Positions 11,835 through 58,269 of a stretch of DNA of 64,000 nucleotides are shown one piece after another. Under the pieces are notes generated by a model. The model was not told the DNA's origin. It did no database searches and saw only the letters and a list, made by a program, of their open reading frames with translations. The number at the start of each line of letters is the position of its first letter. Position 1 is the stretch's first letter. Position numbers and translations under genes: made by a program. The stretch lies in assembly GCA_030390025.1 (NCBI GenBank), contig CM059431.1, positions 135,100,001 through 135,164,000 of the forward strand, written 5' to 3'. The DNA is from Squalus acanthias. Its lineage: Eukaryota.

Positions 11835-14410
11835 ACATCTCTGCCATTTTTTTATACCCCATTTCAATTTCTCCTGTCTCTGACTCTAAGGGACCCATAT
11901 TTACTTTCGCTAATCTCTTGCTTTTTGCATGCTTGTAAAAGCTCTACAGTCTGTTTTTATTGTTTCTTGCTAGTTTATTCTCATTCTATTTTCTTCCTCT
12001 TTATCAATTTTTGGTCATCCTTTACTACTCTTTTTGGCAACATTGTAAGCTTTTTCTTTTAATCTAATACTATCTTTAACTTCTCTGTTTAGCCACGGTT
12101 GTACCACTATCCAGTGGAGTTTTTAGATCCGTTGAGAATTATGAATTGTTTCTTTTAATGTTTGCCATTGCTTATCAGCCGTCATATCATTTAATCTAAT
12201 ATCCCAATGTACCTCAGCCAACTTGCCCCTCATACCTCCGTAATTGGCTTTGTTTAATTTTAATATCCTAGTTTCAGATTTAACCACATCACTCTCAAAC
12301 TTAATATGAAATTCTATCATATTATGATCAACTGTATATCCAAGTACTTTTTAAATGCAATGAGAGTTTCTGTCTCTACCACCCTTTCAGGCAGTGAGTT
12401 CCAGACCCCCACCACCGTCTGGGTGAAAAAATTTCTCCTCAACTCCACCAATCGTTCTACCAATTACTTTAAATCTGTGCTCCCGGGCTATTGATCTCTC
12501 TGCTAAGGGAAATATGTCCTTCCAATCCACTCTATCTAGGCCCCTCATAATTTTATACACCTCAATTAAATCTCTCCTCAGCATCCTCTGTTCCAAAGAA
12601 AACAACCGCAGCCTATCCGATCTTTCCTCATAGCTAAAATTCTCCAGTCCTGGCAACATCACCGTAAATCTCCTCTGTACCCTCTCTAGCGCAATCACAT
12701 CTTTCCTGTAATCTGGTGACCAGAACTGTACGCACTCCCTGAGCTGTGGCCTACTAGTGTTTTATACAGTTGAAGCTCTTATATTCTATTCCTCGGCTAC
12801 TAAAGGAAAGTATCCAATATGCCTTCTTAACCACCTTAGCTACCTGTCCAGCTAACTTCAGGGATCTGTGGACATGCACTCCAAGGTCCCTCTGTTCCGC
12901 TAAACTTCTCAGTATCCTATCATTTATTGTGTATTGCCTTGCCTTGTTAACCCTCACCAAATGCATTACTTCACACTTGTCCAGATTGAATTCCATTTGC
13001 CACTTTTCTGCCCACCTGACCAGTCCATTGCTATCTTCCTGCAGTCTGCTGCTTTCTTCCTCACTATCAACCATTAGGCCAATTTTTGTATTATCTGCAA
13101 ACTTCTTAATCATGCCCCCTACATTGAAGTCTAAGTCATTGATATATACCACAAAAAGCAAGGGACCTAATACTGAGCCCTGCGGAACCCCACTGGAAAC
13201 AACGTTCCAGTCACAAAAACACCCGTTGACCATTACCATTTGCTTCCTGCCACTGAGCCAATTTTGAATCAAACTTGCCATTTTCCCTTGGATCCCAGAG
13301 GCTTTTACTTTTCTGACCAGTCTGCCGAGTGAGGCCTTGTCGAAGCCTTGCTAATATCCATGTAGACTACATCAAACGCGCTACCCTCATCGACCCTCCT
13401 TGTTACCTCCTCAAAACATGTAATCAAGTTAGTCAGACACGACCTCCCCTCAGCAAATCCATGCTAACTGTCCTTGATTAATCCGTGCCTTTCTAAATGA
13501 CGATTAATTCTGTCCTTCAGAATTTTTCCCAGTAATTTGCCCACCACCGAGGTTAGGTTGACTGCCCTGTAATTACTCAGTCTATCCCTTTCTCCCTTTT
13601 TAAACAACGGTATAACATTAGCAGTTGTCCAGATGTCTGGCACTACACCTGTAGCCAGAGAGGATTAGAAAATGATGGTCAGAGCCTCTGCTATTTCTTC
13701 CCTTGTCTCTCATAACAGCCTGGGATACATTTCATCTGGGTCTCACTGCTCAGAAATTTGCCTACATATTTGCTCTGCTATCTCCCTCTGACTGTTTGGG
13801 TGGTCCTTAGTACACTCTCAGCAATGTGAGTGCCCCTTTTTTGTTCTTCAGTTCAACCCATACGGCCTCATTTGATGATTCTTCTAACATATCATCCCTC
13901 CTCATAGCTGTAATTGTCTCTTTAACTAATATTGCAACTATGATATCATACTTCTACGTGTCTATCTGTGCCCTCACTAGACTCTTTGCATTGAAGTATA
14001 TGCTATTAAGCTCTGCCAAACTCCTTTGTTGTCTATTTTCTAGCCTTTGTTTCCTCTGCCTTCCAAACTCACTTATTAATTTACTGCCTTCCATTTTCAG
14101 ATTTGCTTCTCTCTCTTCTGAATCCATGCTCAGGTTCCCATCCCCCTGCCAAGCTAGTTTAAACCCTCCCCAACAACACTAGCAACCCCACCGCGAGGAC
14201 ATTTGTCCCGGCCCTGTTGAGGTGCAACCCATTCGGCTTGTACAGTTCCCACCTTGCCCAGAACTGGTCCCAATGCCTCAGGAATCTAAAGCACTCCATC
14301 CTGCATCATCTCTCCAGCTACACATTTATCTGCTCTATCTCCCTATTTCTGTTCTCACGAGCACGTGACACCGGGACTAATCCAGAAGTTACTACCTTTG
14401 AGGTCCTGTC
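11835..14410 (-). mobile_element. Composite of CR1 fragments (endonuclease-linker, RT and ORF1 parts)
   Basis: Minus ORFs 12123-12320, 12387-12698 and 12754-13281 (GVPQGSVLGPLLFVVYINDLD..KFADNTK). ORF1-esterase-like sequence at ~14160-14410. Confidence 0.9.
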
Positions 14411-17400
14411 CTGCTGAAGACTTGTGCTCCATAACTAGCCAAGCTGTTCCAGTACAGCTACAACACTGGCATCTACCCGACAATGTGGAAAATTGCCCAG
14501 GTATGTCCTGTCCACAAAAAGCAGGACAAATCTAATCCGGCCAATTACCGCCCCATCAGTTTACTCTCAATCATCAGCAAAGTGATGGACGGTGTCATCG
14601 ACAGTGCTATCAAGTGACACTCCCCAATAACCTGCTCACTGATGCTCAGTTTGGGTTCCGCCAAGACCACTCTGCTCCAGATCTCATGACAGCCTTGGTC
14701 CAAACATGGACAAAATACCTGAATTCCAGAGGTGAGGTGAGAGTGACTGCCCTTGAAATCAAGGCAGCATTTGACCGAGTGTGGCATCAAGGAACCCTAG
14801 TAAAATTGAAGTAATTGGTAATCGGGGAAAACTCTCCACTGGCTATAGTCATACCTAGTATAAAGGAAGATGGTTGTGGTTGTTGGAGGTCAATCATCTC
14901 AGCCCCAGGACACCGCTGCAGGAGTTCCTCAGGGCAGTGTTGTAGGCCCAACCATCTTCAGCTGCTTCATCAATAACATTCCCTCCTTCATAAGGTCAGA
15001 AATGGGGATGTTCGCTGATGATTGCACAGCGCAACTCCTCAGATAATGAAGCAGTCCATGCCCACCTGCAGCAAGACCTAGATGACATTCAGGCTTGGAC
15101 TGGCAAGTGGCAAGTAACATTCACGCCACAGAAGTGCCAGGCAATGACCATCTCCAACAAGAGAGAGAGTCCAACCACCAGCCCTTCACATTCAACGGCA
15201 TTACCTTTGCAGAATCGCCCACCATCAAAATCCTGGGGGCCACCTTGATCAGAAACTTAACTGGATCAGCCACATAAATACTGTGGCTACAAGAGCAGGT
15301 CAGAGGCTGGGTATTCTGTGGCGAGTGTCTCACAACCTGACTCCCCAAAGCCTTTCCACCATCTGCAAGACACAAGTCAGGAGTATGATGGAATACTCTC
15401 CGCTTGCCTGGATGAGTGCAGCTCCAACAACAATCAAGAAGCTCGACACCATCCAAGACAAAGCAGCCATTTGATTGGCACCCCATCCACCATCTTAAAC
15501 ATTCACTCCCTCCACCACCGGCGCACTGTGTACCATCTACAAGATGCACTGCAGCAACTAGCCAACCCTTCTTCATTAGCACCTCCCAAACCCGCGATCT
15601 CTACTACCTAGAAGGACAAGGGCAGCAGGCGCATGGGAACACCATCACCTGCAAGTTCCCCTCCAAATTACACACCATCCTGACTTGGAAATATATCGGC
15701 ATTGCTTCATCATCGCTAGGTCATCAATCCTGTAACTCCCTCCCTAACAACTGTAAGGGGTTCGGTCGTAGGTGCTTGTGCGGGGTTAGGCCTTCGTTGC
15801 CTAATGCTATTGCTTGCTCTGGTCTCCAGCCAGCCCTGTTGCAATAAGCACCTGTGAGTGGTTCGACCCACTCGCCCTTACGGTTCTGACACTGGACTTA
15901 GATGCGAGAGCAGTAATGCAGAGAAAAACTCAAATAGACCCGGTTGAATAGTACGAAATGGAAATCTTTATTGCATAGCATCCAAAATCATGAAGTACAT
16001 GTCATAGGCACAAATTAATGACAGTACAAGTATACATACATTCATAAAGCTTGGTCTAGGGTAATGAGGAACGCACGGCACATCGTAAAAAGGGGAACAC
16101 ATTATATTTTATCCTTAATAAAACCACCCTCCCCTATCAATACCTACACTATATCTAGATTTGTAGGATCGGGACACATGCTCACCACTCGTGATACTTC
16201 GGAGAATTATAAACGAGGCACTCGGCTTGTTTTGCTGCAGTACCTGACTGTCACGTGTTGGAAGGGGTCTCTGTACCCCACTTGTTTATCTTCTCTGCTC
16301 CGGCTAGCAGGCTAGGCTCCCCGTTGTCATGAAGAACTCGACAGTGCTCGGGCCCGGCTGTAGAACTCAAAGAAAAGTCTTTCTGGACCGACACCAGTTA
16401 CCGGTAAAATTCAAAGAAGAGTCTTCCTGTATCGACACCGGTTGTCGATAGAATTCGAAAGAGAGTCTTCCACTGGTCCGGGCAGCAACCTGATAGAGTT
16501 CAAAAATGGTCTTTATATTTACGGGCGCGGTCGGGGTTTACTGACCGCGGCGGCACGTGGATTCTTCTTCTTCTCTTCTCATCTCGTCTTGTCGGGCCTT
16601 CGGGTCCAAAACACTGTTTACCGACGCTCGGGATGGTGCACCCGATCACTGGCCTTCGTCGGGGCGGTTCGTTCTGCTTGAGCTCCACCCAACATTCGAG
16701 TAACCGTCCAGCACGGCTAGAGTCCAGAGGCAACAGAAGGCTGCTCGTCCAACAGAGCGATACCCGAGGATAAGGATAAGAGATCGATGGACATTTGTTG
16801 TCTATAGTTATAGTGCTGGGTTCCCTTATCTCCCGCCCAAATCTTAATGTTCATCCTTTGTAAAATCTTGGCGCTCAAAATTCCCAGTATGGGGTGATTC
16901 TTGTTTGTAATGGGTTTCGGTAGCACCTGAGACTGGCCAACTACCCGTTAATGTTTTCCCCATTGTGGAACCGGCTAGGAGCCTCTCTGGCGGGGTTTTG
17001 GGGGCCTCCGAATACTTGTGTAAGCACCCGAGAATGGCTCTCTCATTGTAGAGCCGTGGGGGAATTTGCGTATTGATGTATCGGGATGGGCCTTCGATTG
17101 CCCAGTACAATGGTCCTTACTTGTGCATGGAAAACGATTCCAGCACTTATATCTCTTGCTATTGTGTCGAATGCAGACAGGTTGTGTCTTGTCTTTATCA
17201 GTGTTTGCTGAGTATTGTCCAATCTTATACTGAAATGTATATTCGAACGCCATCTTGTCTGCCCACTGAAAATTCTGGAAGCTTCTGCCACGAGGTGCGG
17301 CGGCCATTTTACAGGCTTCTGTGTCCTGTCTAATCATGACAGCATTTTGTTTAAATAAAACTGATGAAACGAATCTGCTTTATCTCGTTATTTCGAATCG

Positions 17401-17525
17401 CGATAATTGCGAATTTTACACAACGCTATGGGAGTACCTTCACCTCACGGACTGCAGCGGTTCAAGAAGGCAGCTCACCACCAACTTCTCAAGGGCAATT
17501 AGGGATGGGCAATAAATGCTGGGCC
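14411..17525 (+). mobile_element. RT/3' half of the second (tRNA-headed, CR1/Jockey-group) LINE family, split by a solo LTR
   Basis: QFGFRQDHSAPDL..KAAFDRVWHQG and RSMMEYSPLAW motifs. The 3' end (CAAGGGCAATTAGGGATGGGCAATAAATGC) resumes at 17421 after the LTR. Confidence 0.9.
15752..17420 (-). mobile_element. Solo LTR (ERV or Gypsy), 1669 bp
   Basis: TGTAAGGGG...TTTTACA termini. 4-bp TSD CAAC at 15748-15751 and 17421-17424. The host LINE is contiguous across it. Minus-strand AATAAA at 15967-15972 and TATA-like sequence at 16511-16521. Confidence 0.9.
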
Positions 17526-22593: not shown

Positions 22594-24782
22594 ACATAAG
22601 AAATGGGAGCAGGAGTAGGCCATTCGGCACCTCGAGCCTGCTCCGCCATTCAGTAAGATCATGGCTGATCTTCTACCTCAACTCCATTTTCCTGCACTAT
22701 CCCCATATCCCTTGATTCTCTTAATATCCAAAAATCTATCGATCTCTGTCTTGAATATACTCAAAGAATGAGCCTCCACAGCCCTCTGGGGTAGAGAATT
22801 CTAAAGATTCATCACCCTCTGCCTTTCTATTTTTCCTACCAAAGTGGATAACTTCACATTTCTCAACATTATATTCCATTTGCCATGTTCTTGCCCACTC
22901 ACTTAGCCTGTCAATATCCCTTGAAGCCTCTTTGCATCCTCCTCACAACTTACATTCCCACCTAGCTTTGTATCATCAGCAAACTTGGATATATTACATT
23001 TGGTCCCCTCATCCAAATCATTGATATAGATTGTGAATAGCTGAGGCCCAAGCACTGATCCTTATGGTAGCTCACTAGTTACAGCCTGCCAACCCGAAAA
23101 TGACCTGTTTATTCCTACTCTCTTTTCTGTCCGTTAACCAATCCTCAATCCATGCTTGTATATTACCCCCAATCCCATGAGCCCTAATTTTGTTTAATAA
23201 CCTCTTGTGTGGCACCTTATCGAATGCCTTCTGAAAATCCAAATACACCACATCCACTGGTTTGCCTTTATCTATTCTGCTAGTTACAACCTCAAAAAAC
23301 TCTAACAGATTTGTCAAACACGATTTCCCTTTCATAAATCCATGTTGACTCTGCCCAATCCTATTATTATTTTCTAGGTGCCCTGTTACCACATCCTTAA
23401 TAATAGAGTCTAGCATTTTCCCTATTGCTGATGTCAGGCTAACTGGTCTGTAGTTCCCTGTTTTCTCTCTCCCTCCTTTCTTAAATAGTGGGGTTACATT
23501 TGCTACCTTCCAATCCCCGTGAACTGTTCTAGAATCTCTGGAATTTTGGAAGATGACAACCAATGCATCCACTATCTCTATAGCCACCTCTTTCAAAAAC
23601 CCTAGGATGTTGGTCATTAGCTCCAGGGGATTTATTGGTTTTCAGTCCCATTAATTTCTCCAGTAATATTTTTTTACCTAATACTAATTTCTTTCAGTTC
23701 CTCATTCTCGCAAGACCCTTTGTTGTCCAGTATTTCTGGGAGATTTTTTGCGTCTTCTTCCGTGAAGACAGACACAAAGGGCTCGATTTTGTCAATGGGG
23801 GCGTGATGGAGGCGGGACTCCCACTTTTTGGGTTGTAGTCCCGCCTCCATCGACTTGTGGCCAACCCACGCTACTTTCCCTTGATTGACCTTGTTAAGCC
23901 CGCCCAGCGGGCTCAGCAGGCCAATTAAGGGACACCTGGATACTGGTGACATCAGCGATTGACATTTCATCTGTCAAGAGCTTTTGACAGATGAAATATC
24001 AGCGTTTGACAGCTCTGTGAAGCTGTCAAACACTGACAATCTGTCTTCTAACTTGTGTCCTTCTACTCAGACTCAGTTAGAGAGCTCTCCAGACCAGAAA
24101 GCAGAGGCTGCAGCTTTTGACAGTTCAGTGGCCATTCTGCTTTCTGTGCCGGTGAGCTGAGGGACTCCCGAGAACTGAAGGGAGGAAGCCTGGAGGAGAA
24201 AGTAAAGGTAAGTAAAACTTATTAAAACACTTTACACACACCAAACACACTTACCTCTGCACTCATGCACCCATCACTCACCTGTACACCGGACATCTCG
24301 ACCCCTCCAAGCCCTGCAGACCGACGGTCCGCCTCGCTAACTTGGCGTGGTTTGGAGCCGTCAGGCAGCCCACACTTCAGGGCTAAAAATAGGGACTAGC
24401 CAAAAAACTGCCTGTTAACAGGCAGTTAATTGGCACTAATCCCCTTCCCGCCTCGGGCAGGCGGCTCCCAGAACAGGTCGGGTACCCTCCTCCTGGGACA
24501 TTGGCATGGAGGTGGGTTGGGGGCGGGATGGGTACGTGCCTCCCGATTCTGCAATTTTCCCACCACTCCCGCCTCCAAACCCGCCTCCACGGGGCTTGGA
24601 AATTCGAGCCCAAAGTATTTGTTTAATTTCTCTGCCATTTCCTTATTCCCCATTATAATTTCTCCTGTCTCAGCCTGTAAGGGACCCACATTTACTTTTG
24701 CTAATCTTTTCCTTTTTACATACCTATAGATGCTTTTACACTCTGTTTTTATGCCTCTCATTAGTTTACTCTCATATTCTAT
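22594..24782 (-). mobile_element. CR1 LINE (internally deleted) inserted antisense into the host CR1
   Basis: Reverse 3' tail from 22594. Minus ORF 23075-23617 encodes the RT N-terminal part. ACATAA occurs at both junctions. Confidence 0.9.
23779..24611. mobile_element. Harbinger-derived MITE, 833 bp
   Basis: TIRs GGGCTCGATTTT / AAATTCGAGCCC. TSD AAA at 23776-23778 and 24612-24614. The host CR1 is contiguous across it. A related copy lies at 54400-55213. Confidence 0.85.
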
Positions 24783-25911
24783 TACATAAAGAGCAAGTGG
24801 AAAACTAAAGAAAGAGTAGGGCCTATTAGAGACCAAAAAGGTAACCTGTGTGCGGAGGCGGAAGACGTGGGTATGGTTCTTAATGAATACTTTGTGCCTG
24901 TCTTCACAAATGCAGTCATTGTAGTTAAGGAGGAGGATTGTGAAATATTAGATGAGATAAACATAGTGAGAGAGGAAATCTTAAGGGGTTTAGCATCTTT
25001 GAAAGTAGATAAATCGCTAGGCCCAGATGAAATGTATCCCAGGCTGTTAAGAGAGGCAAGGGAGGAAATAGCAGAGCTCTGACCATCATTTTCCAATCCT
25101 CTCTGGCTACAGGTGTGGTGCCGTTGGACTGGATGACTGCTAACGTTGTACCATTGTTTAAAAAGGGAGAAGGGGTTAGATGGAATAATTACAGGGCGGT
25201 CAGCCTAAACTCGGTGGTGGGCAAATTATTGGAAAAAATTATGAAGGACAGTATTATTCATCTTTTAGAAAGGCACGGATTAATCAGGGACAGTCAGCAT
25301 GGATTTGTTAAGGGAAGGTCGTGTCTGACTAACTTGACTGGATTTTTTGAGAAAGTAACAAGAAGGGTTGATGAGGTTAGCATGTTTGATGTAGTCTACA
25401 TGGATTTTAGCAAGGCTTTTGACAAGGTCCCACATGGCAGACTGGTCAGAAAAGTAAAATCCTCTGGGATCCAAGGGTAAGTGGCAAGTTGGATCCAAAA
25501 TTGGCTCAGTGGCAGGAAGCAAAGGGTAATGGTCGACGGATGTTTTTGTGTCTGGAAGGCTGTTTCCAGTGGTTTTCCGCAGGTCTCAGTACTAGGTCCC
25601 TTGCTTTTTTGTGGTATATATCAATTGTTTAGACTTCAATGTAAGGCGCATGATTATGAAGTTTGCAGATGATACAAAAATTGGCCGTGTGGTTGATAAT
25701 GAGGAAGAAAGCTGTAGACTGCAGGAAGATATCAATGGACTAGTCAGGTGGGCAGAAAAGTGGCAAATGGAATTCAATCTGGACAAGTGTGAGGTAATGT
25801 ATTTGGTGAGGGTTAACAAGGCAAGGGAATACACACTAAATGGTAAGATACTGAGAAGCGTAGAGGAACAGAGAGACCTTGGAGTGCATGTCTACAGATC
25901 CCTGAAGTTAG

Positions 25912-28900
25912 CTTCACAACGACATGCAAGCCGTGATCCTGACCAACGGTTCCACCACAGACCCAATTCATGTACAGACCGGGGTCAAGCAAGGCTGTGT
26001 CATCGCACCAATGCTCTTCTCGATCTTCCTTGCTGCAATGCTCCATCTCACCCTCGGTAAGCTCCCCACTGGAGTGGTGCTAATTTACAGAACAAATGGG
26101 AAACTGTTCAACCTTCGTCGCCTCCAGTCCTGATCCAAGGTCATCCCATCCTCTGTCGTCGAATTACAGTATGCAGACGACGCTTGCGTCTGCGCACACT
26201 CTGAGGTTGAACTGCAGACCATAGTCAACACCTTCACCGAAGCGTACGAGAGCATGGGCCTTACACTAAACATCCGAAAGACAAAGGTCCTCTACCAACC
26301 TGCCCCTGCCACACAGTACTGCCCCCCGATTATCAAAATACACGACAAAGCCCTGGACAACGTGGACTACTTTCCATATGAGTGAGGCAGGTACGGGGAT
26401 CCAGGAGGTAGTATTGCAGGAGCCTCAGTCCCTGAATCCAATAGATTCGAGGTTCTTGCAAACCTTGTGGACAAGTGCGGGGACTGTGGGGTCGACGAGC
26501 AAACTGACCACGGCACCATGGTACAGGAAGCCATTCAAGTGGGGGGAGTAAAAAGGAAGGTGGTTGTAGTAGGCGACAGTATAGTTAGGGGGATAGACAC
26601 TGTTCTCTGCAGCCAGGAGCGTGAGTCTCAAAGGCTATGTTGCCTACCCGGTGCCAGGGTAAAGGACATCTCCTCTGAGTTGGAGAAGAACTTGGAGTGG
26701 GAGGGGGAGGATCCAGTTGTCATGGTCCACGTAGGTACCAATGACATAGGTAGGACAAAGAAAGAGGTTCTGCTGAGAGAGTTTGAGCAGCTAGGGACTA
26801 AATTAAAAAGCAGAACCACAATGGTCATAATCTCTGGATTATTACCGGAGCCACGAGCAAATTGGCATAGGGTCAATAGGATCAGGGAGATGAATGCATG
26901 GCTCAAAGATTGGTGTGGGAGAAGTGGGTTTTGATCCGTGGAGCACTGGCACCAGTACTGGGGAAAGAGAGAGCTGTTCCATTGGGACGGACTACACCTG
27001 AACCATGCTGGGACCAGAGTTCGAGCAAATCGAATAAGTCGGGAGGTAGATAGGGCTTTAAACTAAATAAAGGGGTGGAGGGTCCCAGTGGAGAAAATCT
27101 AGAATGCTAAAGAGAAAAGACAAGGAAGCAGTTCAGGAAAATGATTGGGGTAAGGATAACCAGATTGTGTCAGGAAGGGACAGAGCGTACAAACAAAGGA
27201 GTGCACTAAAAAATAGGGTCCGGGTAAGAAAAAATGGTAATAAGACAAATAGCACCACAGTACATAAAAATGTTAAGATGTCTAAAAATGTTAAAAAGAC
27301 AAATCTAAAGGCACTGTATCTGAATGCATGAAGCATTCGTAATAAGGTAGATGAATTAACAGCGCAAATAGATGTAAACAGATACGATATAATTGCGATT
27401 ACGGAGACATGGCTGCAGGGTGACCAAGGCTGGGAGCTGAATATCCAAGGATATTCGATATTTAGGAAGGACAGGCAAAAAGGAAAAGGAGGTGGGGTGG
27501 CATTGTTAGTAAAGGATGAAATCAGCGCAATAGTGAGAAAGGATATTAGCTCAGAAAATCAAGATGTAGAATCAGTCTGGGTGGAGCTAAGGAGCACCAA
27601 GGGGCAGAAAAAATTGGTGGGAGTTGTCTGAAGGCCTCCAAACAGCAGTGGTAATGTAGGGGATGGCATCAAACAGGAAATTAGAGATGCATGTAACAAG
27701 GGTACTACAGTAATCATGGGTGACTTTAATCTACATATAGACTGGCCAAACCAAATTAACAATAATACTGTGGAGGATGAATTCCTGGACTGTGTACGAG
27801 ATGGTTTTTTAGACCAGTACATTGAGGAGCTAACTAGGGAACAGGCTCTCCTAGATTGGGTATTGTGCAATGAGAAGGGTTAATTAATAATCTTGTTGTG
27901 CGGGGTTCTTTAGGGAAGAGTGACCATAACATGATAGAATTCTTCATTAAGATGGAAAGTGAAGAAGTCCAATCCAAAACTAAGGTCCAAAATCTCAACA
28001 AAGGAAACTATGAAGGTATGAGGAGGGAGTTGGCTATGATAGATTGGGGAGCTTCCTTGAAAGGCATGATAGTGGATAGGCAATGGCTAACATTTAAGGA
28101 ACGAATGCATGAATTGCAACAGTTATACATTCTTTTCTGGCGCAGAAAACACAAAAGGAAAAGTGGCCCAACCATGGCGAACAAAAGAAATTTAGGATAG
28201 TATTAGATCCAAAGAGGAGTCATATAAAGTTGCCAGAAAAAGTAGCAAGCCTGAGGATTGGGAGCAGTTTAGAGTTCAGCAAAAAAGGACCAAGAGATTG
28301 ATTAAGAGGGGAAAAATAGAGTATGAGAGTAAACTTGAAAGGAACATAAAAGCGGATTGTAAAAGCTTCTACAAGTATGTAAAAAGAAAAAGATTAGTGA
28401 AGACAAATGTAGGTCCCTTACAGTCAGAACAGGAGAATTTATAATGGGGAACAAGGAAATGGCAGAGCAATTAAACAAATACTTTGGTTCTGTCTTCACG
28501 GAAGAGGACACAAATAACTTCCCAGAAATGCTAGGGAACCAAGGGTCTAGTGAGAAGGAGGAATTAAAGGAAATTAGTATTAGTAAAAAAATAGTGCTGG
28601 AGAAATTAATGGGACTGAAAGCCAATAAATCCCCAGGGCCTGATAATCTGCATCCCATAGTACTAAAAGAGGTAGCCATGAAAATAGTGGATGCATTGGT
28701 TGTCATCTTCCAAAATTCTATAGATTATGGAACAGTTCCTGCAGATTGGAGGGTGGCAAATGTAACCCCACTATTTATAAAAGGAGGGAGAGAGAATACA
28801 GGGAAGTACAGATCGGTTAGCCTAACATCAATAGTAGGGAAAATGCTAGAGTCTATTATAAAGGATGTGATAACAGGACACTTAGAAAATATCAACGGGA

Positions 28901-30982
28901 TTAGACAAAGTCAACATGGATTTATGAAAGGGAAATCGTGTTTGACAAACCTACTGGAGTTTTTTGAGGATGTAACTGGTAGAATAGATAAGGGAGAACC
29001 AGTGGATGTGGTGTATCTGGATTTTCAGAAGGCCTTTGATAAAGTCCCACATAAGAGGTTAGTGTGCAAAATTAAAGTACATGGAATTGGGGGTAATATA
29101 CTGGCATGGATTGAAAATTGGTTAACAGACAGGAAACAGAGAGTAGGAATAAATGGGTCTTTTTCGGGGTGGCAGTCGGTGACGAGTGTGGTACCGCAGG
29201 GATCGGTGCTTGGGCCCCAGCTATTCACAATATATATCAATGATTTGGATGAGGGAACCAAATGTAATATTTCCAAGTTTGCTGACGACACAAAACTAGG
29301 TGGGATTGTGAGTTGTGAGGAGGATGCAAAGAGGCTTCAAGGTGATTTAGACAAATTGATTGAATGGGCAAATACATGGCAGATGCAGTATAACGTGGAT
29401 AAATGTGAAGTTATCCACTTCGGTAGGAAAAACAGAAAGGCAGAGTATTATTTAAATGGTGATAGATTGGGAAATGTTGATGTACAGAGGGACCTGGGTG
29501 TCCTTGTACATCAGTCACTGAAAGCAAACATGCAGGTGCAGCAAGCAGTTAGGAAGGCAAATGGTATTTTGGCCTTCATTGCAAGAAGATTTGAGTACAG
29601 GAGCAAGGATGTCTTACTACAGTTATACAGGACCTTGGTGAGACCACATCTGGAGTATTGTGTGCAGATTTGGTCTCCTTACCTAAGAAAGGATATACTT
29701 ACCATAGAGGGAGTGCAGCGAAGGTTCACCAGACTGATTCCTGGGAAGGCAGGACTGTCGTATGAGGAGAGATTAGGTCGACTAGGCCTGTGTTCACTAA
29801 AGTTTAGAAGAATGAGAGGGGATCTCATTGAAATGTATATAATTCTGACAGAGCTAGACAGACTGGATGCAGGGAGGATGTTTCCCCTGGCTGGGGGGTC
29901 TAGAACGAGGGGTCACAGTCTCAGGATACAGGGTAGGACATTTAAGACTTAGATGAGGAGAAATTTCTTCACTCAGAGGGTGGTGAACCTGTGGAATTCT
30001 CTACCACAGAAGGCTGTGGAGGCCAAATCACTGAATATATTTAAGAAGGAGATAGATAGATTTCTAGACACAAAAGGCATCAAGGGGTATGGGGAGAGAG
30101 CGGGAATATGGTATTGAGATAGAGGATCAGCCATGATCAATTTGAATGGCAGAGCAGGCTCAAAGGGCCGAATGGCCTACTCCTGATCCTATTTTTCTAT
30201 GTTTCCATATTTTTATACCTCGGAAGCCTACTGTCAACAAGGGCAGACGTCGATGACAAAGTCTAACACCGCCTTCAATGTTCCAGTGCAGCCTTCAGTC
30301 ACCTGAGGAAGAGAGTGTTTGAAGACCAGGACCTCAAACCCGGCACCAAGCTCATGGTCTACAGAGCAGTAGTGATACTTGCCCTCCTGTATGCCTCAGA
30401 GACATGGACCATGTACAGCAGGCACCTCAAAGCACTGGAGAGGTACCACCAACGCTGCCTCCGCAAGATCCTGCAAATCCATTGGCAGGATAGCCACACC
30501 AACGTCAATGTTCTCACTCAGGCCAACATCCCCAGCATCGAAGCTTTGACCACGCTCGATCAGCATGCCCGATACGAGACTCCCAAAACAAGCGCTCTAC
30601 TTGGAGCTACGACACGGCAAGAGAGCCCCAGGTGGGCAGAGGAAACGCTTCAAGGACACCCTCAAAGCCTCCTTGAAAAAGTGCAACATCCCCACCGACA
30701 CCTGGGAATCTCTGGCCCAAGACCGCACAAAGTGGAGGAGAAGCATTCGGGAAGGCGCCGAACACCTCGAGTCTCTTCGCCGGGAGCAAGCGGAAGCCAA
30801 GCGCAAGCAGTGCAAGGAGCGCACGTCAACCCAAGCACCCCACCCACCCGGCCCTTCAACCACCGTCTGCCCCACCTGTGACAGAGTCTGTAGGTCCCGC
30901 ATTGGACTCATCAGTCACCTGAGAACTCATTTTTTATGTGGAAGCAAGTCATCCTCGGTTCTGCGGGACTACCTAAGAGAAG
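25912..30982 (+). mobile_element. 5'-truncated RTE-clade LINE split by a CR1
   Basis: TGVKQGCVIAP, LQYADD and FPY|YLGS joined across the CR1 insert. LLYASETWT motif, C-terminal CPTC..H...H zinc finger, GAAGA-type tail. Confidence 0.9.
26380..30201 (+). mobile_element. Near-full-length CR1: ORF1 SGNH esterase part plus APE-RT ORF2, disrupted
   Basis: ORF 26467-26934 (VVVGDSIVRG..CLPGARV..VHVGTND). APE start YLNA at ~27320. 502-aa RT ORF 28444-29952. TTTCCATAT flanks both sides (26371-26379, 30202-30210). Confidence 0.95.
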
Positions 30983-31299: not shown

Positions 31300-34200
31300 T
31301 TGCCGATTATATGACCATTCTGCAAGTTTATTGATGCCTTCTTGTAATTTGTTGCAGTCCTCCTCAGTGTTGACTATCTCAATTTGGTATTGCTACAAAT
31401 TGTGTTTTTGATTCCAAATTCTGAATCATTGATATAAATTGTGAATAACAGTGGTCCCAGCACTTGTGCTTGTGCGAGCCCACCTCCCACCTTCTGCCAC
31501 TCTGAATAGCTATCCTTTACCCTTCTCTCTGATTTATGTCTTGCAGCCAGCTAGCTATCCATTCTACTACTTGCCCCCTGACTCCGCATGCTCTGACCTT
31601 ATTCATTAGTCAATTATGTTTTTTTAATTATTCGTTTATGGGATGTGGGCATCGCTGGCAAGGCCAGCATTTATTGCCCATCCCTAATTGCCCTTGAGAA
31701 GGTGGTGGTGAGCTGCCTTCTTGAACCGCTGCAGTCCGTGTGGTGAAGTTACTGTTAGGTAGGGAGTTCCAGGATTTTGACCTAGCGACGATGAAGGATC
31801 GGCGATATACTTCTAAGTCAGGATGGTGTGTGACTTGGAGGGGAACTTGGAGGTGGTGGTGTTCCCATGCGCCTGCTGCCCTTGTCCTTCTAGGTGGAAG
31901 AGGTCGCGGGTTTGGGAGGTGCTACCGAAGAAGGCTTGGCGAGTTGCTGCAGTGCATCTTGTAGATGGTACACACTGCAGCCACGGTACGCCAGTGGTTG
32001 AGGGAGTGAATGTTTAAGATGGTGGATGGAGTGCCAATCAAGCGGACTGCTTTGTCCTGGGTGGTGTCGAGCTTCTTGAGTGTTGTTGGAGCTGCACTCA
32101 TCCAGGCAAGTGGAGAGTATTCCATCACACTCCTTACTTGTGCCTTGTAGATGGTGGAAAGCCTTTGGGGAGTCAGGAGGTGAGACACTTGCCGCAGAAT
32201 ACCTAGCCTCTGACCTGGGCTTGTTGCCACAGTATTTATGTGGCTGGTCCAGTTAAGTTTCTGGTCAATGGTGACCCCCCAGGATGTTGATGGTGGGGCA
32301 TTTGGTGATGGTAATGCCGTTGAATGTCAAGGGGAGCTGGTTAGATTCTCGCTTGTTGGAGATAGTCATTGCCTGGCACTTCTGTGGCGCGAATGTTACC
32401 TGCCACTTATCAGCCCAAGCCTGAACGTCGTCCAGGTCTTGTTGCATGCGGGCATGGACTGCTTCATTATCTGAGGAGTTGTGAATGGCACTGAACACTG
32501 TGCAGTCATCAACGAACATCCTCATTTCTGACCTTATGTTGGAGGGAAGGTCATTGATGAAGCAACTGAAGATGGTTGGGCCTAGGACACTGCCCTGAGG
32601 AACTCCTGCAGCGATGTCCTTGGGCTGTGATGGTTGACCTTCAACCACCACAACCATCTTCCTTTGTGCTATGTATGACTCCAGCCAGTGAAGCATTTTC
32701 CCCCTGATTCCCATTTACTTCAGAATTACTTGGGCTCCTTGATGCCACACTTGGTCAAATGCTGCCTTGATGTCAAGGGCAGTCACTCTCACCTCACCTC
32801 TGGAATTCAGCTCTTTAGTCCATGTTTGGACCAAGGCTGTAATGAGGTCAGGAGCTGAATGGTTTTGTCGGAACCCAAACTGGGCATCAGTGAGCAGGTT
32901 ATTGGTGAATAAGTGCCGCTTGACAGCACTGTCGATGACACCTTCCATCACTTTGCTGATGATTGAGAGTAGACTGATGGGGCGGTAATTGGCCGGGTTG
33001 GATTTGTCCTGCTTTTTGTGGACAGGACATACCTGGGCAGTTTTCCACATTGTCGGGTAGATGCCAGTGTTGTAGCTGTACTGGAACAGCTTGGCTAGAG
33101 GCGCGGCTAGTTCTGGAGGACAAGTCTTCAGCACGATATCCGGGATGTTGTCGGGGCCCATAGCCTTTGCTGTATCCAGTGCGCTCAGCCATTTCTTGAT
33201 ATCACGTGGAGTGAATCGAGTTGGCTGAAGACTCGCTTCTGTGATGGTGGGAACCTCAGGAGTAGGCCGATATGGATCATCCACTCGGCACTTCTGGCTA
33301 AAGATGGTTGCGAACGCTTCAGGCTTGTCTTTTGCACTCACGTGCTGGGCTCCACCATCATTGAGGATGGGGATATTCACGGAGCCTCCTCCTCCCGTTA
33401 GTTGTTTAATGGTCCACCACCATTCAAGACTGGATGTGGCAGGACTGCAGAGCTTTGATCTGATCTGTTGATTGTGGGATCGCTTAGCCCTGTCTATAGC
33501 ATGCTGCTTCTGCTTTTTAGCATGCATGTAGTCCTGTGTTGCAGCTTCCCCAGGTTGTTACCTCATTTTTAGGTACGCCTGGTGCTGCTCCTGGCATGCT
33601 CTTCTACACTCGTTATTGAGCCAGGGTTGGTCCCCTGACTTGGTGGTAATGGTAGAGTGAGGGATATGCCGGTATATGAGGTTACAGATTGTGGTGGCAT
33701 ACAATTCTGCTGCTGTTGATGGCCCACAGCACCTCATGGATGCCCAGTTTTGAGCTGCTAGATCTGTTCTGAATCTATCCCATTTAGCACAGTGGTAGTA
33801 CCACACAACACAATGGAGGGTGTCCTCAGTGTGAAGACGGGACTTCGTCTCCACAATGACTGTGTGCGGTGGTCACCGCTACCAATACTGTCATGGACAG
33901 ATGCATCTGTGACAGGTAGATTGGTGAGGATTAGGTCAAGTAGGTCTTTCCCTCGTGTTGGTTCTCTCACCACCTGTCGCAGGCCCAGAGTGGCAATTAT
34001 GTCCTTCAGGACTCGGCTCGGTGCTACATTGAAATCCTCCACCCATACTACATTCTGTGCCCTTGCTACTCTCAGTGCTTCTTCCAAGTGGTGTTCAACA
34101 AGGAGGAGTACTGATTCATCAGCTGAGGGAGGGCGGTAGGTAGTAATCAGCAGGAGGTTTCCTTACCCATGCTTGACCTGAAGCCATGAGACTTCATGGG

Positions 34201-35375
34201 GTCCAGAGTCAATGTTGAGGACTCTTTGGGCCACTCCTTCCCAACTCTATGTCCTGCCGGTGGGACAGGACATACCAGGGATGGTGATGGCGAAGTTTGG
34301 GACATTGGCTGATGTGAATATGACTATGTCAGGCTATTGCTTGACTAGTCTGTGGGGTAGCTCTCCCAATTTTGGCACCAGTCCCCAGATGTTGGTGAGG
34401 AGGACTTTGCAGGGTCGACTGGGCTGGGTGTGGCGTTGCTGTGTCCGCAGCTGGTGCCGAGGTTGATGCCGGGTGATCCGTCTGGTTTCATTCTTATTAT
34501 TGTTTTTCGTAGCAGTTTGTTACAACTGAGTGGCTTGCTTGGCCATTTCAGAGGGCAGTTAAGAGTCAACCACATTGCTGTGGGTCTGAAGTCACATATA
34601 GGCCAGACCAGGTAACGATGGCAGATTTCCTTCCCTAAACTGAACCAGATGGGGTTTTTATGACAATCCGATAGTTTCATGATACTCGCTTTTTATTCCA
34701 AAAATGAACTTCAATTTTAGATTTATTTAATTAACTTCCCCAGCTTTCATGGTGGGATTTGAACTCCCGTCTCGGTTTCATTAGGTCACTGGATTATTAG
34801 GCCCAGTGACAGTGACAGTACCACTACGCTACTGATCCCGTACCTTATCAAAGCCCTTTGGAAATCTAGATATATTACATCTACTTAATTACCCTTGTTT
34901 ACTCATTCTGTTACCTCTTCAAAGATTTCAATGAGATTGGTCAAGCAAGACTTTCCCTTTTTGAAATCCCTGTTGAGTATTTATTATTTTTGTTTTCCAG
35001 ATGGTTTTCTATTTTCTCCTTTATTCGGGATTCCATTATTTTTACTACTACTGATGTTAAGCTGACTAATCTATAGTTCCCTGGACATGTTCTATCTCTC
35101 TTCTTAAATATGGGTATAACATTAGCTATCCACCAGTCCTGTGACACTAAAACTTTTTTTAATGAATTATTAAATATGCGTAATAGTGCCTCTACTAATT
35201 CTTCCCTAGATTCTTTTAAAATGCGTGGATGCAGTCTGTCCGGACCTGGGGTTTTATCCCCTTTGAGTTTGATTAGTTAATTTAACATTCCTCCTCTTTT
35301 TATTTTAACTGCGGTTAATCATTTCTAATCTCATCTTCCAATGTCAGGTCCACCTGATCTGTATCCGAATAGTTT
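31300..35375 (-). mobile_element. Old CR1 RT fragment, split by the LINE at 31618-34832
   Basis: CR1 RT-like sequence at 31300-31617 and 34838-35375 (minus ORF DWWIANVIPIFKK..GNYRLVSLTSVV). Confidence 0.75.
31618..34832 (-). mobile_element. Essentially full-length single-ORF (APE-RT) LINE with a tRNA-like 5' head; frameshifted
   Basis: A-rich 3' end at ~31618. RT ORFs 31922-33527 (GVPQGSVLGPTIFSCFINDLP). APE start KVLLTNIWGL at ~34400. Minus-strand A box TAGCGTAGTGG at 34821-34831 and B box GAGTTCAAATCC at 34755-34766. Confidence 0.9.
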
Positions 35376-41943: not shown

Positions 41944-42930
41944 TGGGTGCCACTTATACTGTCTCACCTTGGTCCTCAGAATCGGACTAGGATGAGCCCC
42001 TACACCAGCAGCAGCAGGCACACCAGCAGCAGCAGCAACAACAACACCACCAACCTTCTCCTGATGCTGCACAGGACAGAGGGCATCAGCGCAGGGGTGC
42101 ACCGTGCCGGAGGCGATACCTCCAACACAGGGTATACAGGCAGAGGATGAGCTTCCTCAACATGACTGAGCAACTGTGCCAAAGGAGGCTCAGGCGATTG
42201 CGCCAGGTCATCGCAGACATTTGCAGTTTGCTCGAACAAGAGCTGCAGCCCAGAGGACCTGGTGGACACGCCTTACCAGTGACTGTCAAAGTCACCCTTG
42301 TCCTCAACTTCTTTGCCTCAGGCTCCTTCCAGGGATCTGCAGCAGACATTTGCAGCATCTCGCAGTCGGCCACTCACAGATGCATCAAGTCACCAATGCC
42401 CTGTTTGACAAGTCAGACAATGATGTCAACTTTGCCACTGATGATGCCAGTGTTATTGAGTGGGCGCTGGGCTTTGCAGCTCTGGCTGGCTGCTTGGAGA
42501 CAAGGGCTATCCACTGAAGACATGGTTCATGACACCCTTGAAGAAGCCAAGTACTGAGGCCGAGGAGAGATATAATGAAAGCCATATGTTCACCAGATGT
42601 GTCATAGAGCAAATAATAGGCATGCTGAAAATGCGCTTCAGATGCCTTGACAGATCTGGAGGAGCCCTTCAGTATGCACCAGCCAAGGTCTCCAGAATCA
42701 TCGTCGTCTGCTGTGCGCTGCACAACATAGCGCATTAGCGAGGATCAGCGCTGCATGAGGAGCAAGGCTCTGAGCGCACAGCCTTTTCAGAGGAGGCAGA
42801 GCAGGAGGAGCATCAGCTGGAAGATGAGGAGGAGCAGGAGCTGGAGGAACCTGAGGTCCAGATGCCACCAGCACCCAAACACATTGCTGCCCGGGAGGCC
42901 AGGGATGACCTCATCATGGCCAGATTTACT
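41944..42930 (+). pseudogene. HARBI1-like transposase pseudogene of the outer Harbinger
   Basis: [21 protein letters not shown] and [38 protein letters not shown] motifs. Frameshifts, and the central GAIDCTH region is deleted. Confidence 0.9.
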
Positions 42931-43369
42931 TACATTTCTGCAGTACACCCATATGGAAGTCACATGCAGCTGAGCAGAGCTGGGAACATCCTGCTCCCTC
43001 CAGTGAGGAGTCTCCACTGCTGTCTCTGTCTCCACCATCTCCTCTTGCTCACTTGTGACTTGTGAGACACCAGGTGACAACACTACGCTGTCTCGCGTAG
43101 GACTAACCGAGGCGCTGGTGCTCGGTGCGCTTATGTCTGCTGACGCTGCACCCTCAGAGGCTGGAGGCTTCTCTGAAAAGTCCTCTTCCTCTTCCTCCTG
43201 GACAGTGTGGGGGGGGGGGGGGGGGAGGGGCAGGGCTGTGCTCTTGATGGACCTGTGGGAAAGTAAAGAGATGATTTAGAAATCTAGGGGGAGAAATTCG
43301 GTACCTTAGCACCTCCAGTCAGCGCCTGGCGGGGGCGCTAATGGGGCAATGAGCCAGTAGCGAGAAAGA

Positions 43370-44453: not shown

Positions 44454-44649
44454 ATTAAACCCCAAATCCCTGTTGCTCACCACATCCCCATCATTTCATC
44501 CCTGTCACAGGCCATTTCACAGCACAAAGCTGAAATGAGACACACCACAAAATAATACAAACGGAATTAATAAATTTATCAATAATCAGTTAACACATAT
44601 TTACAACAACAATATTAACTATTCACCCTTGTGCAATCCCTTAGTTACT

Positions 44650-49132: not shown

Positions 49133-51067
49133 CCTATAATTAGGGGGATAGATAGCGTCCTCTGCAGCCACGAACAATATTCCCGAAGGGTGTGTTGCCT
49201 GGTGTGTGTGTGTGGTGCCAGAGTAAGGGATATCTCGAAGCAGCTGGAGAGGAATTTGGAAAGGGAGGAGGAAAATCCAGTTGTTGTGGTCTATGTTGGA
49301 ACAAACGACATAGGTAGGAACAGGGAGGAGGTCCTGCTGAGGGAGTATCAGGAGCTAGGAGCTAAATTAAAAAGCAGGACCATGAAGGTAATAATCTCTG
49401 GATTGTTGCCCAAGCCATGTACAAATTGGCATAGAAAAAGACAGATCAGGAAAATTAACATGTGGATAAAGGGCTGGTGTGGGAAAGAGGGGTTCCTTTT
49501 CATGGGACACTGACATCAGTACTGGGAAAGGAAGGAGCTGTAAAGATGGGACAGCTCCACTTGAACCGGAATGGGACCAGTGCCATAGTGGAAAGGGTAA
49601 ATAGGGAGCTGGGAATTAAACATTGCAGGGTATAACATATTCAAAAAAGATAGAGTGGGAAAAAGGGAAGGTGGAGTAGATGTACTTATTAGCGAAAACA
49701 TAATGGCAGTAGAAGAAAGTAAAGCAGCTATCAGTAAGACAGAAATAGAATCCGTGTGGATAGAGATAAAAGATAATGAAGGATCAATCACACTAATAGG
49801 GGTAGTCTACAGACCACCTAATAGTGGAAGGGAGCTGGAGGAAAAAGTATGCAACAAATCAGGAAAATTAGTAGAAATCCTAGAATAATAATCATGGGGG
49901 ATTTCACCTACCCTGAATTAATTGGCCAGAAGAGGTAGATAAAGGGGATAAGTGAATGGAGTTCCTACAATGTGTACAGGACTCCTTTCGAACCCAGTAT
50001 GTAAGAAGCCCAATAAGGGAAGATTTGGGTACTGGGTCTAGTAATGGGGAATGAACCAGAGCAGATAAGAAAAGTAAAAGTAGGGGAACATCTAGGAAAT
50101 AGTGACCATAATATAATATACTTTAAGATAAAAATTGAGATGGACATAAGCATGACAATGACCAGGGTAATAGATTGGAGAAAAGCAGATTTTGAGGGGC
50201 TGAGAATAGAACTTGGGAAAATAAAATGGACAGCAAATATTGGCAAATAATGATGCAGAACAGCAATTGGAAACATTTAAAATGGTGTTCAACAGATTCC
50301 ATGAAAAATATATTCTGGCAAAAAATAAGAACAAACTAAACACTAATGAAACACCATGGATAAATAACGACATAAGGGAAAAATTGAGGGCAAGGAAACA
50401 GATATACACTAAGTACATGGATTGCAGGGGAGAGCATGACAAGGGTGAATATGAAGAGATTGGGAGAGAAGTCAAAAAAACAAAGAGGCAAAGAGGGACT
50501 ATGAAATTAAATAATCAAGGAATTTAAAATAAAATAGTAAAATATTCTATTCTAAAAAAAGGGAAGTCGGGATGGGAATAGGGCCACTAGAGGATGGACA
50601 GCATTAAATCACAGGCAGCGATAGCGAAGTGGCAGAAATATTCAATAATTACTTTGCTTCAGTATTTACCAGGGAGACAGATCAGGTGGGCCTGACATCA
50701 GAGGATGAGATTAGAAATTATATAACTGCATTTAAAATAAAAAGAGGAGAAATATTAAAGAAACTACTCAAACTCAAAGAGGATAAAACCCCTGGTCTGG
50801 ACAGATTGCATCCGCACATTTTAAAAGAATCTAGAGAAGAGATAGCAGAGGCACTATTACACATATTTAATAATTCGTTAGAAAAAGGTGTAGTGCCAGA
50901 GGATGGCGGATACCTATATTTAAGAAGGGAGATAGAACATGTCCATTGAATTATAGAACAGTCAGCTTAACGTCGGTGGCAATAAAAATAATGGATTCCT
51001 ACTAAAGGAGAAAATAGAAAAATATCCAGAAACCAAAAATACAATAATGAATAGTCAGCATGGATTT

Positions 51068-51225
51068 TTAAAAATTCATTCCTAGGATGTGGACATTGCT
51101 GGCAAGGCCAGCATTTATTGCACATCCCTAATTACCCTTGAGAAGGTGATGCTGAGCTGCCTTCTTGAACCACTGCCGTCCTTGTGGTGAAGGTACTCCC
51201 ACAGTGCTGTTAGGGAGGGAGTTCC
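51068..51225 (-). mobile_element. 3'-terminal fragment of the tRNA-headed LINE family
   Basis: Matches 31625-31770. Confidence 0.85.
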
Positions 51226-56071: not shown

Positions 56072-57992
56072 TTCTACTTTGATGATGATTGAGGGTAGGC
56101 TAATGGGGTGGTAATTGGCCATATTGAATTTGTCTTGCTTTTTGTGGACAGGACATACCTGGGCAATTTTCCACTTTGTCGGGTAGATGCCAGTGTTGTA
56201 GCTGTACTGGAACAACTTGGCTAGAGGCGTGGCTAGTTCTGGAGCACAAGTCTTTAGCATTAGAGCCGGGATATTGTCAGGGCCCATTGCCTTTACCGTA
56301 GCCAGTGTGCTCAGCTGTTTCTTGATATCTTGCTTCTTGGAGTGAATCGAATTGGCTGAAGACTGGCATCTGTGATGGTGGGGACCTCAGGAGAAGGCCG
56401 AGATGGATCATGCACTCGGCACTTCTGGTTGAAGATGGTTGCGAACGCTTCAGCCTTGTCTATTGCACTCACGTGCTGGGCTCCACCATCATTGAGGATG
56501 GGGATGTTCACGGAGCCTCTTCCTCCTGTTAATTGTTTAATTGCCCACCACCATTCACAACTTGATGTGGCAGGACTGCAGAGCTTTGATATGATCCATT
56601 GCTTAGCTCTGTCTATAGCATGCTGCTTCCATTGCTTAGCACGCATATAGTCCTGTATTATAGATTCCCTAGGTTGGCACCTCATTTTTAGGTATGCCTG
56701 GTGCTGCTCCTGCAATGCTCTTCTACATTCTTCATTGAATCAGGGTTGGTCACCTGGTTTGATGGTAATGGTACAGTTAGGGATATGCCGGCGATGAGGT
56801 CACAGATTGTGGTGCAGTACAATTCTGCTGCTGCTGATGACCCACAGCACCTCATGGATGCCCAGTTTTGAGCTACTAGATCTGTTCTGAATCTATCTCA
56901 ATTAGCATGGTGGTACACAACACGATGGAGGGTCTCCTCAGTGTGAGGACAGGACTTCGACTCCACAAGGACTGTGCGGTGGTCACTGCTGCTAATGATG
57001 TCATGGACAGATGCATCTGCGACAGGTAGATTAGTGAGGACGAGGTCAAGTAGGTTTTTCCCTCGTGTTGGTTCTCTCACCAGCTGCCGCAAGCACAGTC
57101 TGGCAGCTATGTCCTTCAGGACTCAGCCAGCTCGGTCAGTAGTGGTGCTACTGAGCCACTTCGGTGATAGACATTGAAGTCCCCCACCCAGAGTACATTC
57201 TGTGCCCTTGCTATCCTCAGTGCTTCCTCAGTGCTTCCTCCAAATGGTGTTCAACATGGAGGAGTACTGATTAATTAGCTGATGGAGGGTGGTAGGTGGT
57301 AATCAGCAAGAGGTTTCCTTGCCCATGGTACATAATACCATGAAATTTCATGGGATCCGGAGTCAACATTGAGGACTCCCAGGACTGCTCCCTCCCGACT
57401 GTATACCATTGTGCTGCCACCTTTTGTGGATCTGTCCTGCCGGTGGGACAGGACATACCCAGGGATGGTATGGAGTGGTCTGGGACATTGGCTGAAAGGT
57501 ATGATTCTGTGAGTATGACTATCTCGGGCTGTTGCTTGACTAGTCTGTGGGACAGCTCTCCCAATTTTGGCACAAGGCCCCGAATGTTAGTGAGGATGAT
57601 TTTGCAGGGTTGACTGGGCTGGGTGTGCCTTGCTGTGTCCGAATCCGATGCCTAGGTCGTCCGTTCAGTTTTAGTCTTAATTTACTTCTTCGTAGCAGCT
57701 TGAAACAACTGAGTGCATGCTAGGCCATCTCAGATGGCAGTTGAGAGTCAATCACATTGCTGTGGGCCTGGAGTCACAAATAGGCCAGACCTGGTTTCCT
57801 TCCCTAAAGGACAGTAGTGAACCAAATGGGTTTTCCCCACAATCTGGTAGTTTTATGGTCACCATTACTGATACTAGCTTTTGAATTCCTTATCTATTTA
57901 ATTAACTAAATTTAAAATTCCCAACTGCCATGGTGGGATCATTATTCCAGACCTCTAGGCTACTAGTCCAGTAACATAACACTATGCTACTG
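56072..57992 (-). mobile_element. 5' half (tRNA-like head, APE, RT start) of the tRNA-headed LINE family
   Basis: Homologous to 32955-34832. APE start KIILTNIRGL..IVILTESYL. Head TAGCATAGTG at ~57980-57989 on the minus strand; B box damaged. Confidence 0.9.
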
Positions 57993-58269
57993 TTGGATTT
58001 TTGAGACCCTGACATATTTAAGTATTTAGTTATCTCCATCGGTTATGCACATGGCCAGATGTGGTCAGCGATGTTTTTTGATTTTGTTGGAGGCAGTTCA
58101 TGGTGCTGGCGGGGTTGGTGACTTTAGGGGCCAGGATCTAGTTTTTCCAAATGGTTCTTATTCTTTTGATGAATGTATTTTATTTTGTATTATGCATACT
58201 TCAGTTAGTATTAATTCTTGGGCTTTTCAATGCCATAGTGAGTAAACGCATCATATTGCTGTGGTACTA

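Follow-up and report, generated by a model that had tools for sequence, protein, structure and literature searches.

A LINE family of Squalus acanthias with a tRNA-like head, a single endonuclease-reverse transcriptase frame and SINE-sized deletion derivatives

Introduction

Long interspersed nuclear elements (LINEs) are as a rule coding elements transcribed by RNA polymerase II (Pol II), and short interspersed nuclear elements (SINEs) non-coding elements that RNA polymerase III (Pol III) transcribes; this division is stated as a rule (PMC5786205, PMC10886601), and SINEs are said to be unable to encode protein (PMC5786205). Here we present the description of a LINE family of Squalus acanthias in which a tRNA-like head with A and B boxes precedes a single frame for an apurinic-type endonuclease and a reverse transcriptase (APE-RT), together with its short derivatives. 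It was recognized in a stretch of 64,000 nucleotides (nt) of assembly GCA_030390025.1 (contig CM059431.1, positions 135,100,001 to 135,164,000, forward strand), hereafter the window, which holds a full-length but inactivated copy on the minus strand at 31619-34839.

The LINE most similar in its described traits is CR1-Zenon, reported from five elasmobranchs with more than 84% likeness, without a first open reading frame (ORF1) and with a poly(A) tail that no other CR1-group element is said to have; it is not in repeat repositories and is closest to crustacean and invertebrate elements (bioRxiv 10.64898/2026.01.13.699120). The present element has in common with it the single APE-RT ORF, the missing ORF1 and the poly(A) tail. 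The main text of the preprint differs from our description in making no mention of tRNA, polymerase III or a promoter and in being silent on a head, a missing AUG, T-run avoidance and short derivatives. The nearest named proteins of the element are from moth and lancelet (35-44%), and the CR1 elements of the window are only 31% alike; a quick tree of 37 reverse transcriptase (RT) rows placed the element among mostly invertebrate-type proteins, away from the window CR1s. The element is probably the elasmobranch CR1-Zenon, an identity based on traits and not on a tree with named Zenon sequences. As to novelty, which the first-pass annotation of the window had left open, the lack of ORF1 was already published for Zenon. 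A tRNA head, or any coding LINE headed by a Pol III promoter, was not found described in the literature covered, which left out most subscription papers, Repbase and Dfam; a search of paper texts and supplements for the letters of the element returned unrelated primer-like matches only.

Among SINEs, the T+ elements B2 and Ves are polyadenylated and tRNA-derived (SINE2; PMC10572872, PMC8466645). The element resembles them in the internal A and B boxes of its tRNA-like head, the start just before the A box, the AATAAA signal, the A tail and the lack of internal oligo(T), and its derivatives of 390-500 nt are SINEs by anatomy. It differs from them in its length of 3.3 kb with a selected APE-RT and in that a T4 terminator is missing from most of its tails. 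Bipartite non-autonomous LINE derivatives are listed for RTE, Ingi, Vingi and R2 only, with none of the CR1 group, in a survey that also sets RTE-1_DAn aside without position or function; it treats such elements as Pol II units, which have to acquire a head separately before they are SINEs (PMC5786205). Like them, the short copies of the present family are built from a LINE's 5' and 3' ends, with the middle deleted and several junctions, but the parent is here already headed, so that each deletion gives a ready-made SINE.

SacSINE1 and the DeuSINEs are also similar, as SacSINE1 is a tRNA-headed shark SINE of 463 bp with a CR1-group tail (PMC5499810, PMC2746220, PMC4824008, PMC3747384). A Deu-domain body, or identity with SacSINE1, was our first guess and was dropped, since comparison by eye of the element body with the Deu alignment (PMC7245038, supplement) gave only one common stretch of 10 letters. 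The Meta and UCON3 domains were also unlike the body by eye.

Organization of the element

The features of the window copy, all on the minus strand, are as follows.

31619..34839, full-length inactivated copy of the head-bearing LINE family (aligned end to end, at 95.7% identity and with 10 deletions, to the majority sequence of 19 copies)
34743..34839, tRNA-like head (Rfam tRNA model on other copies, below cut-off)
34821..34831, A box, TAGCGTAGTGG (exact sequence)
34755..34766, B box, GAGTTCAAATCC (exact sequence)
34520..34742, non-coding body, common to the SINE-sized derivatives (sequence comparison; two AATAAA in the family sequence)
34520..34546, AUG mini frame in good context, AUG at 34544-34546, stops at codons 3 and 9
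31684..34519, single APE-RT frame, broken here, 973 codons in the family (Pfam on copy L094)
33860..34408, apurinic-type endonuclease domain (Pfam on L094; Y, GD-N, D and SDH without variation in alignment A1)
32307..33014, reverse transcriptase domain (PF00078 in two pieces, E 1.7e-13 and 1.8e-18)
31619..31683, short 3' untranslated region with AATAAA (31670-31675) and poly(A) tail, retained in all short derivatives

Nineteen copies gave a majority sequence of 3,317 nt with one frame of 973 codons; the copies are 93-98% identical to it, and the intact single frame exists only in this majority sequence. The window copy is dead, with frameshifts, in-frame stops and 10 deletions compared to the family majority, and its RT motif is FVDD, that of the family FADD. 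Copy L094 gave matches to PF03372, PF14529 and PF00078 above cut-off.

The first-pass annotation had located the A and B boxes exactly, and the KVLLTNIWGL start of the endonuclease, which it put at about 34400, begins at 34408. Its outer bounds of 31618 and 34832 are replaced by a start at about 34839 and a poly(A) end at about 31619. The non-coding body of 350 bp that it described extends to about 34520, and the last ~110 nt before the endonuclease (34409-34519) are instead an open, basic, in-frame extension of the ORF. ORF1 is indeed missing: only 329 nt precede the frame, and an overlapping 48-codon frame is not the start, because its AUG is ATA in 39 of 114 copies. Both flanks of the window copy belong to a single CR1 RT fragment, in which they adjoin each other, as the paralogue at 51288-51409 shows. 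No target-site duplication was seen at this insertion within the CR1 RT fragment, and none was clear in five scorable copies of the set (14 others were not scored).

Copy number and linkage of head and coding unit

The unit that moves is 3.3 kb long and comprises the head, the body, one APE-RT frame and the poly(A) tail, and this family-wide architecture is well supported. Exact matching over the whole genome of 3.7 Gb, whose counts are lower bounds, gave at least 1,204 pairs of A box and endonuclease (0 with the reversed control pattern), at least 3,113 endonuclease-internal motif pairs, at least 4,560 junction motifs and at least 13,008 forward-strand tail matches with six or more terminal A. 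The 1,204 pairs against none in the control bear out the proposal that the head is a fixed family trait and not a chance neighbour.

Twenty-five of 29 non-self loci from a search with the endonuclease only extend into the A box; the other four end at positions 62, 99, 399 and 459. Among the first 20 of the 3,113 endonuclease pairs in chromosome order, nine have the whole head, nine have scattered ends in head or body, and two, which represent one duplicated event, end just before the domain. Copies selected on the endonuclease are thus neither mostly headless nor joined to the head at variable positions, as 25/29 and 9/20 reach the A box. From 39 non-self matches to the head only, 20 gave 17 that continue into the ORF, two that jump to the 3' tail and one interrupted copy, and six long-frame copies chosen from 139 RT matches comprise one full-length and five 5'-truncated copies.

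Full-length copies start 7-9 nt before the A box, short derivatives start at the same point, and of 87 copies with head or body, 53 begin within the first five positions. No second common 5' end was found among 49 copies chosen on endonuclease coding sequence, nor in the other samples.

Sequencing runs of nine organisms contain the head-junction stretch; the four runs examined cover all 30 bins of the element, in pieces, with no listed piece spanning the junction. The RNA material listed for this stretch consisted of assembled contigs presumed to be RNA, which show neither transcript start nor strand. Pieces of the protein of the element were also found inside predicted proteins of four sharks, with 53-90% identity. 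These pieces of the element frame in predicted host proteins (P0002, P0009, P0012, P0014 and P0015) would reflect exonisation or annotation error.

Short derivatives with head and tail

Two observations went beyond the first-pass annotation, namely the many SINE-sized deletion derivatives and the absence of a usable AUG before the endonuclease. Internal deletions repeatedly give SINE-sized copies with head and tail, which are themselves copied. The join of body end to the last 65 nt has 142 exact matches, and the 16 fetched are elements of about 390 nt, 80-94% identical to the 5' end of the LINE; all 16 have the body and 12 the head, and they represent three junction types with several copies each. 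Another 20 copies included 12 short forms; these have 10 different junctions and continue beyond the body into sequence specific to the LINE. The short forms are SINE-sized (390-500 nt), and skips from 592-620 to 3460-3507 occur in all four examined runs. Many junctions and one direction argue for a repeated origin of SINEs from the LINE. Short deletions at microhomologies also occur often in full-length copies (at least three shared letters in 90 of 255, about 15 expected); the 5' bias of short deletions in these copies may stem from copy selection.

Head and body

The consensus of the A box is TRGCNNARYGG and that of the B box GTTCRANNC. Both boxes of the window copy fit these motifs and are 54 nt apart. 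The tRNA likeness of the head, as first noted from the boxes, is real but weak. ARAGORN found no tRNA in the window and Rfam nothing on the window copy; on six of eight better copies the Rfam tRNA model scored 19.7-26.9 bits, all below the cut-off of 29 bits, in alignments that in most copies cover only model positions 7-64, with an insert of 22 nt (22.3 bits for L009, 26.0 bits for L132). In the family head the anticodon-arm hairpin occurs twice in tandem (34770-34806 in the window) and the acceptor stem is unpaired; the head does not fold as one cloverleaf. Several copies are again without one anticodon-arm unit and then have the best tRNA scores (L112). The B box shows 1.8% non-CpG change among LINE copies, the flanking head 3-5%, and no subfamily variant of the box was found. 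A misincorporation mark at the T-loop was not found.

The body carries two AATAAA within the first 140 nt of the family sequence, and no stable fold was detected for the first 445 nt (z -0.54). In distant relatives no comparable head was seen, with no tRNA in 30 loci, no relevant Rfam match in 13 and no A/B pair in 12; as these relatives are only 24-48% alike, little follows from them for close sisters. The closest metagenome relative (37%; L135:1-1010) has a normal AUG, a poly(A) tail and many T runs, with no B box in ~1 kb upstream. Viral contigs contained no relative of the element, and the ESM Atlas returned generic APE-RT clusters only.

Reading frame and start codon

The frame is under purifying selection, the endonuclease included. 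Variants present in at least 15% of 66 aligned copies are synonymous to non-synonymous in the ratio 26:21, singletons 443:1,269 (p 3e-5); for the endonuclease before the first Met the values are 21:24 versus 117:391 (p 0.001), and transversions alone gave p 0.03 before the first Met and 2e-4 overall. A comparison with the runs of other organisms covered 40 of 462 differences; 25 of these are peculiar to the reference copy, and among the remaining 15, nine are synonymous (p 0.005). Because of this selection on the ORF it is supported that the lineage behaves as autonomous, as had been proposed.

No usable AUG precedes the frame. Its first in-frame Met is reached only after about 286 codons (33735-33737 in the window copy), past the endonuclease. 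At the body end there is an in-frame AUG whose context is good (34544-34546), with stops downstream of it, TAG at codon 3 in most copies (34538-34540; AAG in the window copy) and TAA at codon 9 (34520-34522). In the first 100 of the 4,560 junction matches, counted by hand, both stops are present in 56, the first only in 19, the second only in 16 and neither in 9. The second stop is absent from older LINE copies, and the 20 copies without it are seven LINEs (three open at both sites), 12 short derivatives and one interrupted copy. The first stop site mutates about 10 times faster than its neighbours, also in the non-coding derivatives. A master lineage with an open AUG frame was considered and rejected, the stop states being nearly independent.

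Family position 309 (34540), a letter in a hairpin loop, shows all three substitutions in about 1/4 of the copies, in LINE and short forms, with a background of 4%; possibly this reflects a modified base in the RNA template.

Since most copies have two stops while the endonuclease is selected, our preferred reading is that translation would start at a downstream non-AUG codon, perhaps by resumption after the two-codon frame; double read-through of the stops is a weaker lead. Translation without AUG has a precedent in ORF2 of L1 (PMC11485995). A codon-anticodon pseudoknot acting as internal ribosome entry site (IRES) is a weak lead: 22 nt downstream of a 7-nt loop lies an in-frame triplet to which the loop can bind, but by only 3-5 pairs and at a chance level of 25%, and neither covariation nor an Rfam IRES match was found. 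In the intergenic IRES of dicistrovirus type an anticodon-like loop pairs with an in-frame codon mimic, with covariation.

T runs and tails

The sense strand of the majority sequence has no run of four or more T over its 3,317 nt, versus 14 internal A runs, and TTT occurs five times versus 13.4 under synonymous shuffling (p<=0.001); none of the 27 TTN codons comes after a codon ending in T. In 103 pieces of the family (139 kb) TTTT occurs at 0.13 per kb versus 1.23 expected, A runs at 4.88 versus 4.77 expected, and the CR1 pieces of the same genome have 2.9-3.6 TTTT per kb (2.7-2.9 expected). The distant metagenome relatives number 80, 41 with long frames, and each of these 41 holds 7-45 runs of four or more T.

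Between tail and poly(A) (31619-31630 in the window copy) the T run varies from 0 to 6 among 55 distinct tails; the hand count is no T in 10, one T in 21, two in 13, three in 6 and four or more in 5. The short runs could be decay at the T/A boundary.

Proposed mechanism and alternatives

The best explanation, to which we give slightly more than an even chance, is an autonomous CR1-group LINE, probably elasmobranch Zenon, which has a tRNA-derived SINE-type 5' head and whose RNA would be made by Pol III. TFIIIC would bind the internal A and B boxes and Pol III make the full-length RNA, a use under which the sense strand would have lost oligo(T). The RNA would be polyadenylated at the terminal AATAAA, as is reported for Pol III transcripts of some SINEs (PMC10572872). 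The uncapped RNA would be translated without a standard start, in the simplest case with ribosomes reading the Met-Ala-stop mini frame at the body end and then resuming the same frame at a non-AUG codon. The protein would use target-primed reverse transcription to copy the RNA that encodes it, and about half of the copies reaching the endonuclease would be 5'-truncated, as is usual. For transcription of the family by Pol III, judged indirectly from the perfect boxes, T runs and 5' ends, the balance is narrowly in favour. The wider picture of a 3.3-kb Pol III mRNA with cap- and AUG-free translation, a body that acts as ribosome entry and a lineage-wide SINE factory is more tentative and may well not hold in full.

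Several points weigh against this explanation. The mechanism has no explanation for the recruitment of ribosomes by uncapped RNA, and SINEs are 100-700 nt long, a length to which Pol III is held to be limited by its processivity (PMC10886601). Conservation of the B box exceeds that of the flanking sequence only modestly, that of the A box not at all, and as four or more T stand in only 5 of 55 tails, most copies are without their own terminator. For one sequence the absence of TTTT is not significant under most models (p 0.04-0.33), nor is TTT once dinucleotides are kept (p 0.09), and the family copies in the T-run counts are not independent. TTT is below the synonymous shuffle in 3 of the 41 distant relatives, too, and a frame of 612 nt with 15% T in another LINE of the window, which we take to be RTE (Pfam gave no family), also has no TTTT. 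Transitions alone gave p 0.11 for the endonuclease before the first Met, and no stop-free full frame occurs among the best 139 and the best 150 protein matches, for which reason activity is taken to be recent and only possibly current.

An element that is autonomous but transcribed by Pol II, with a capped RNA and a head that is a relic or a Pol II promoter or boundary, is a less probable, though substantial, alternative. It agrees with the rule for LINEs given above and with AATAAA plus poly(A) as the usual Pol II 3' end, poly(A) being present in all Zenon; a capped RNA would moreover explain loading at the strong AUG of 34544-34546. The scarcity of T runs would then be due to avoidance of U-rich splice or polyadenylation elements or to plain A/C-rich codon use, and the T-run statistics do weaken with dinucleotides kept. 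However, the depletion is specific for T on the sense strand and is found neither in the CR1s of the same genome nor in the 41 relatives, the element and its SINE-sized derivatives have their 5' ends at one point just before the A box, and two AATAAA in the first 140 nt would be awkward for a Pol II transcript.

It is improbable that the element is a non-autonomous giant SINE, a head joined to a 5'-truncated LINE that had lost its start codon, copied in trans by an unseen sister LINE or by a minority of copies whose AUG frame is open. Exchange of SINE modules through template switching is common (PMC5499810), 56 of the first 100 junction matches have both stops and only 9 neither, and the missing intact frame among the best protein matches fits as well; on the other hand, shared variants show purifying selection also before the first Met, and the 49 endonuclease-selected copies have no second shared 5' end. 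Variation at one stop site is almost independent of that at the other (56/19/16/9), and the first stop has been lost in scattered lineages and commonly in short derivatives too, a pattern that looks like a mutation hot spot and not like a master lineage. Less probable still is a head that is no promoter and at which RNase P-like cutting frees full-length RNA from longer host Pol II transcripts. Copies do start at about tRNA position 1, and other LINE clades without ORF1 release their 5' end by ribozymes (PMC5786205), but the acceptor stem is unpaired, Rfam aligns only model positions 7-64 in most copies with no cloverleaf, and T-run loss is not predicted.

Other features of the window

Three further pieces of the family are present.

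56076..57994, minus strand, second, older copy with damaged head, body and endonuclease, 3' part gone (80% identity over 1,833 columns)
14409..17522, plus strand, third copy, 5'-truncated, in pieces 14409-15751 and 17421-17522, split by a 1,669-bp TG...CA insertion
51065..51225, minus strand, isolated 3'-end fragment (83% identity over 161 columns)

The second copy, cited in the first-pass annotation for having the same head, body and junction, does share them at 80% identity, but its A box is short of one G, and a deletion between two ATCC repeats has removed its B box. The insertion that splits the third copy (15752-17420, 1,669 bp) has TGTAA...TTACA ends and a 4-bp CAAC duplication and resembles a solo long terminal repeat. 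Frames at 41991-47810 and 7686-8309 gave Pfam matches to DDE_Tnp_4 (43361-44450) and to a Myb/SANT-like domain (47301-47810) and are presumably remains of a Harbinger-type DNA transposon. Many CR1 fragments, which served as controls, lie at 8844-13350, 19474-29952 and 48000-52500, some with long open frames (529 codons, 28363-29952) and with pieces of a GDSL-esterase ORF1 (26386-26934).

Implications

The family numbers tens of thousands of copies in a single vertebrate genome and matters for the repeat annotation of cartilaginous-fish genomes. Even if it is transcribed by Pol II, a CR1-group LINE yields SINE-sized elements by repeated deletion, for which group the Repbase survey has no such report (PMC5786205). 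That its RNA is a Pol III-made, unconventionally translated mRNA has about an even chance. If true, every internal deletion that keeps both ends would at once be a complete Pol III SINE, which would provide a direct route for the birth of SINEs and a function for a conserved SINE body. A natural exception to the rule for LINEs and SINEs would make it testable whether functional Pol III mRNAs of several kilobases exist in vertebrates, and with this family the translation of uncapped LINE RNA and the origin of SINE bodies would become testable as well.

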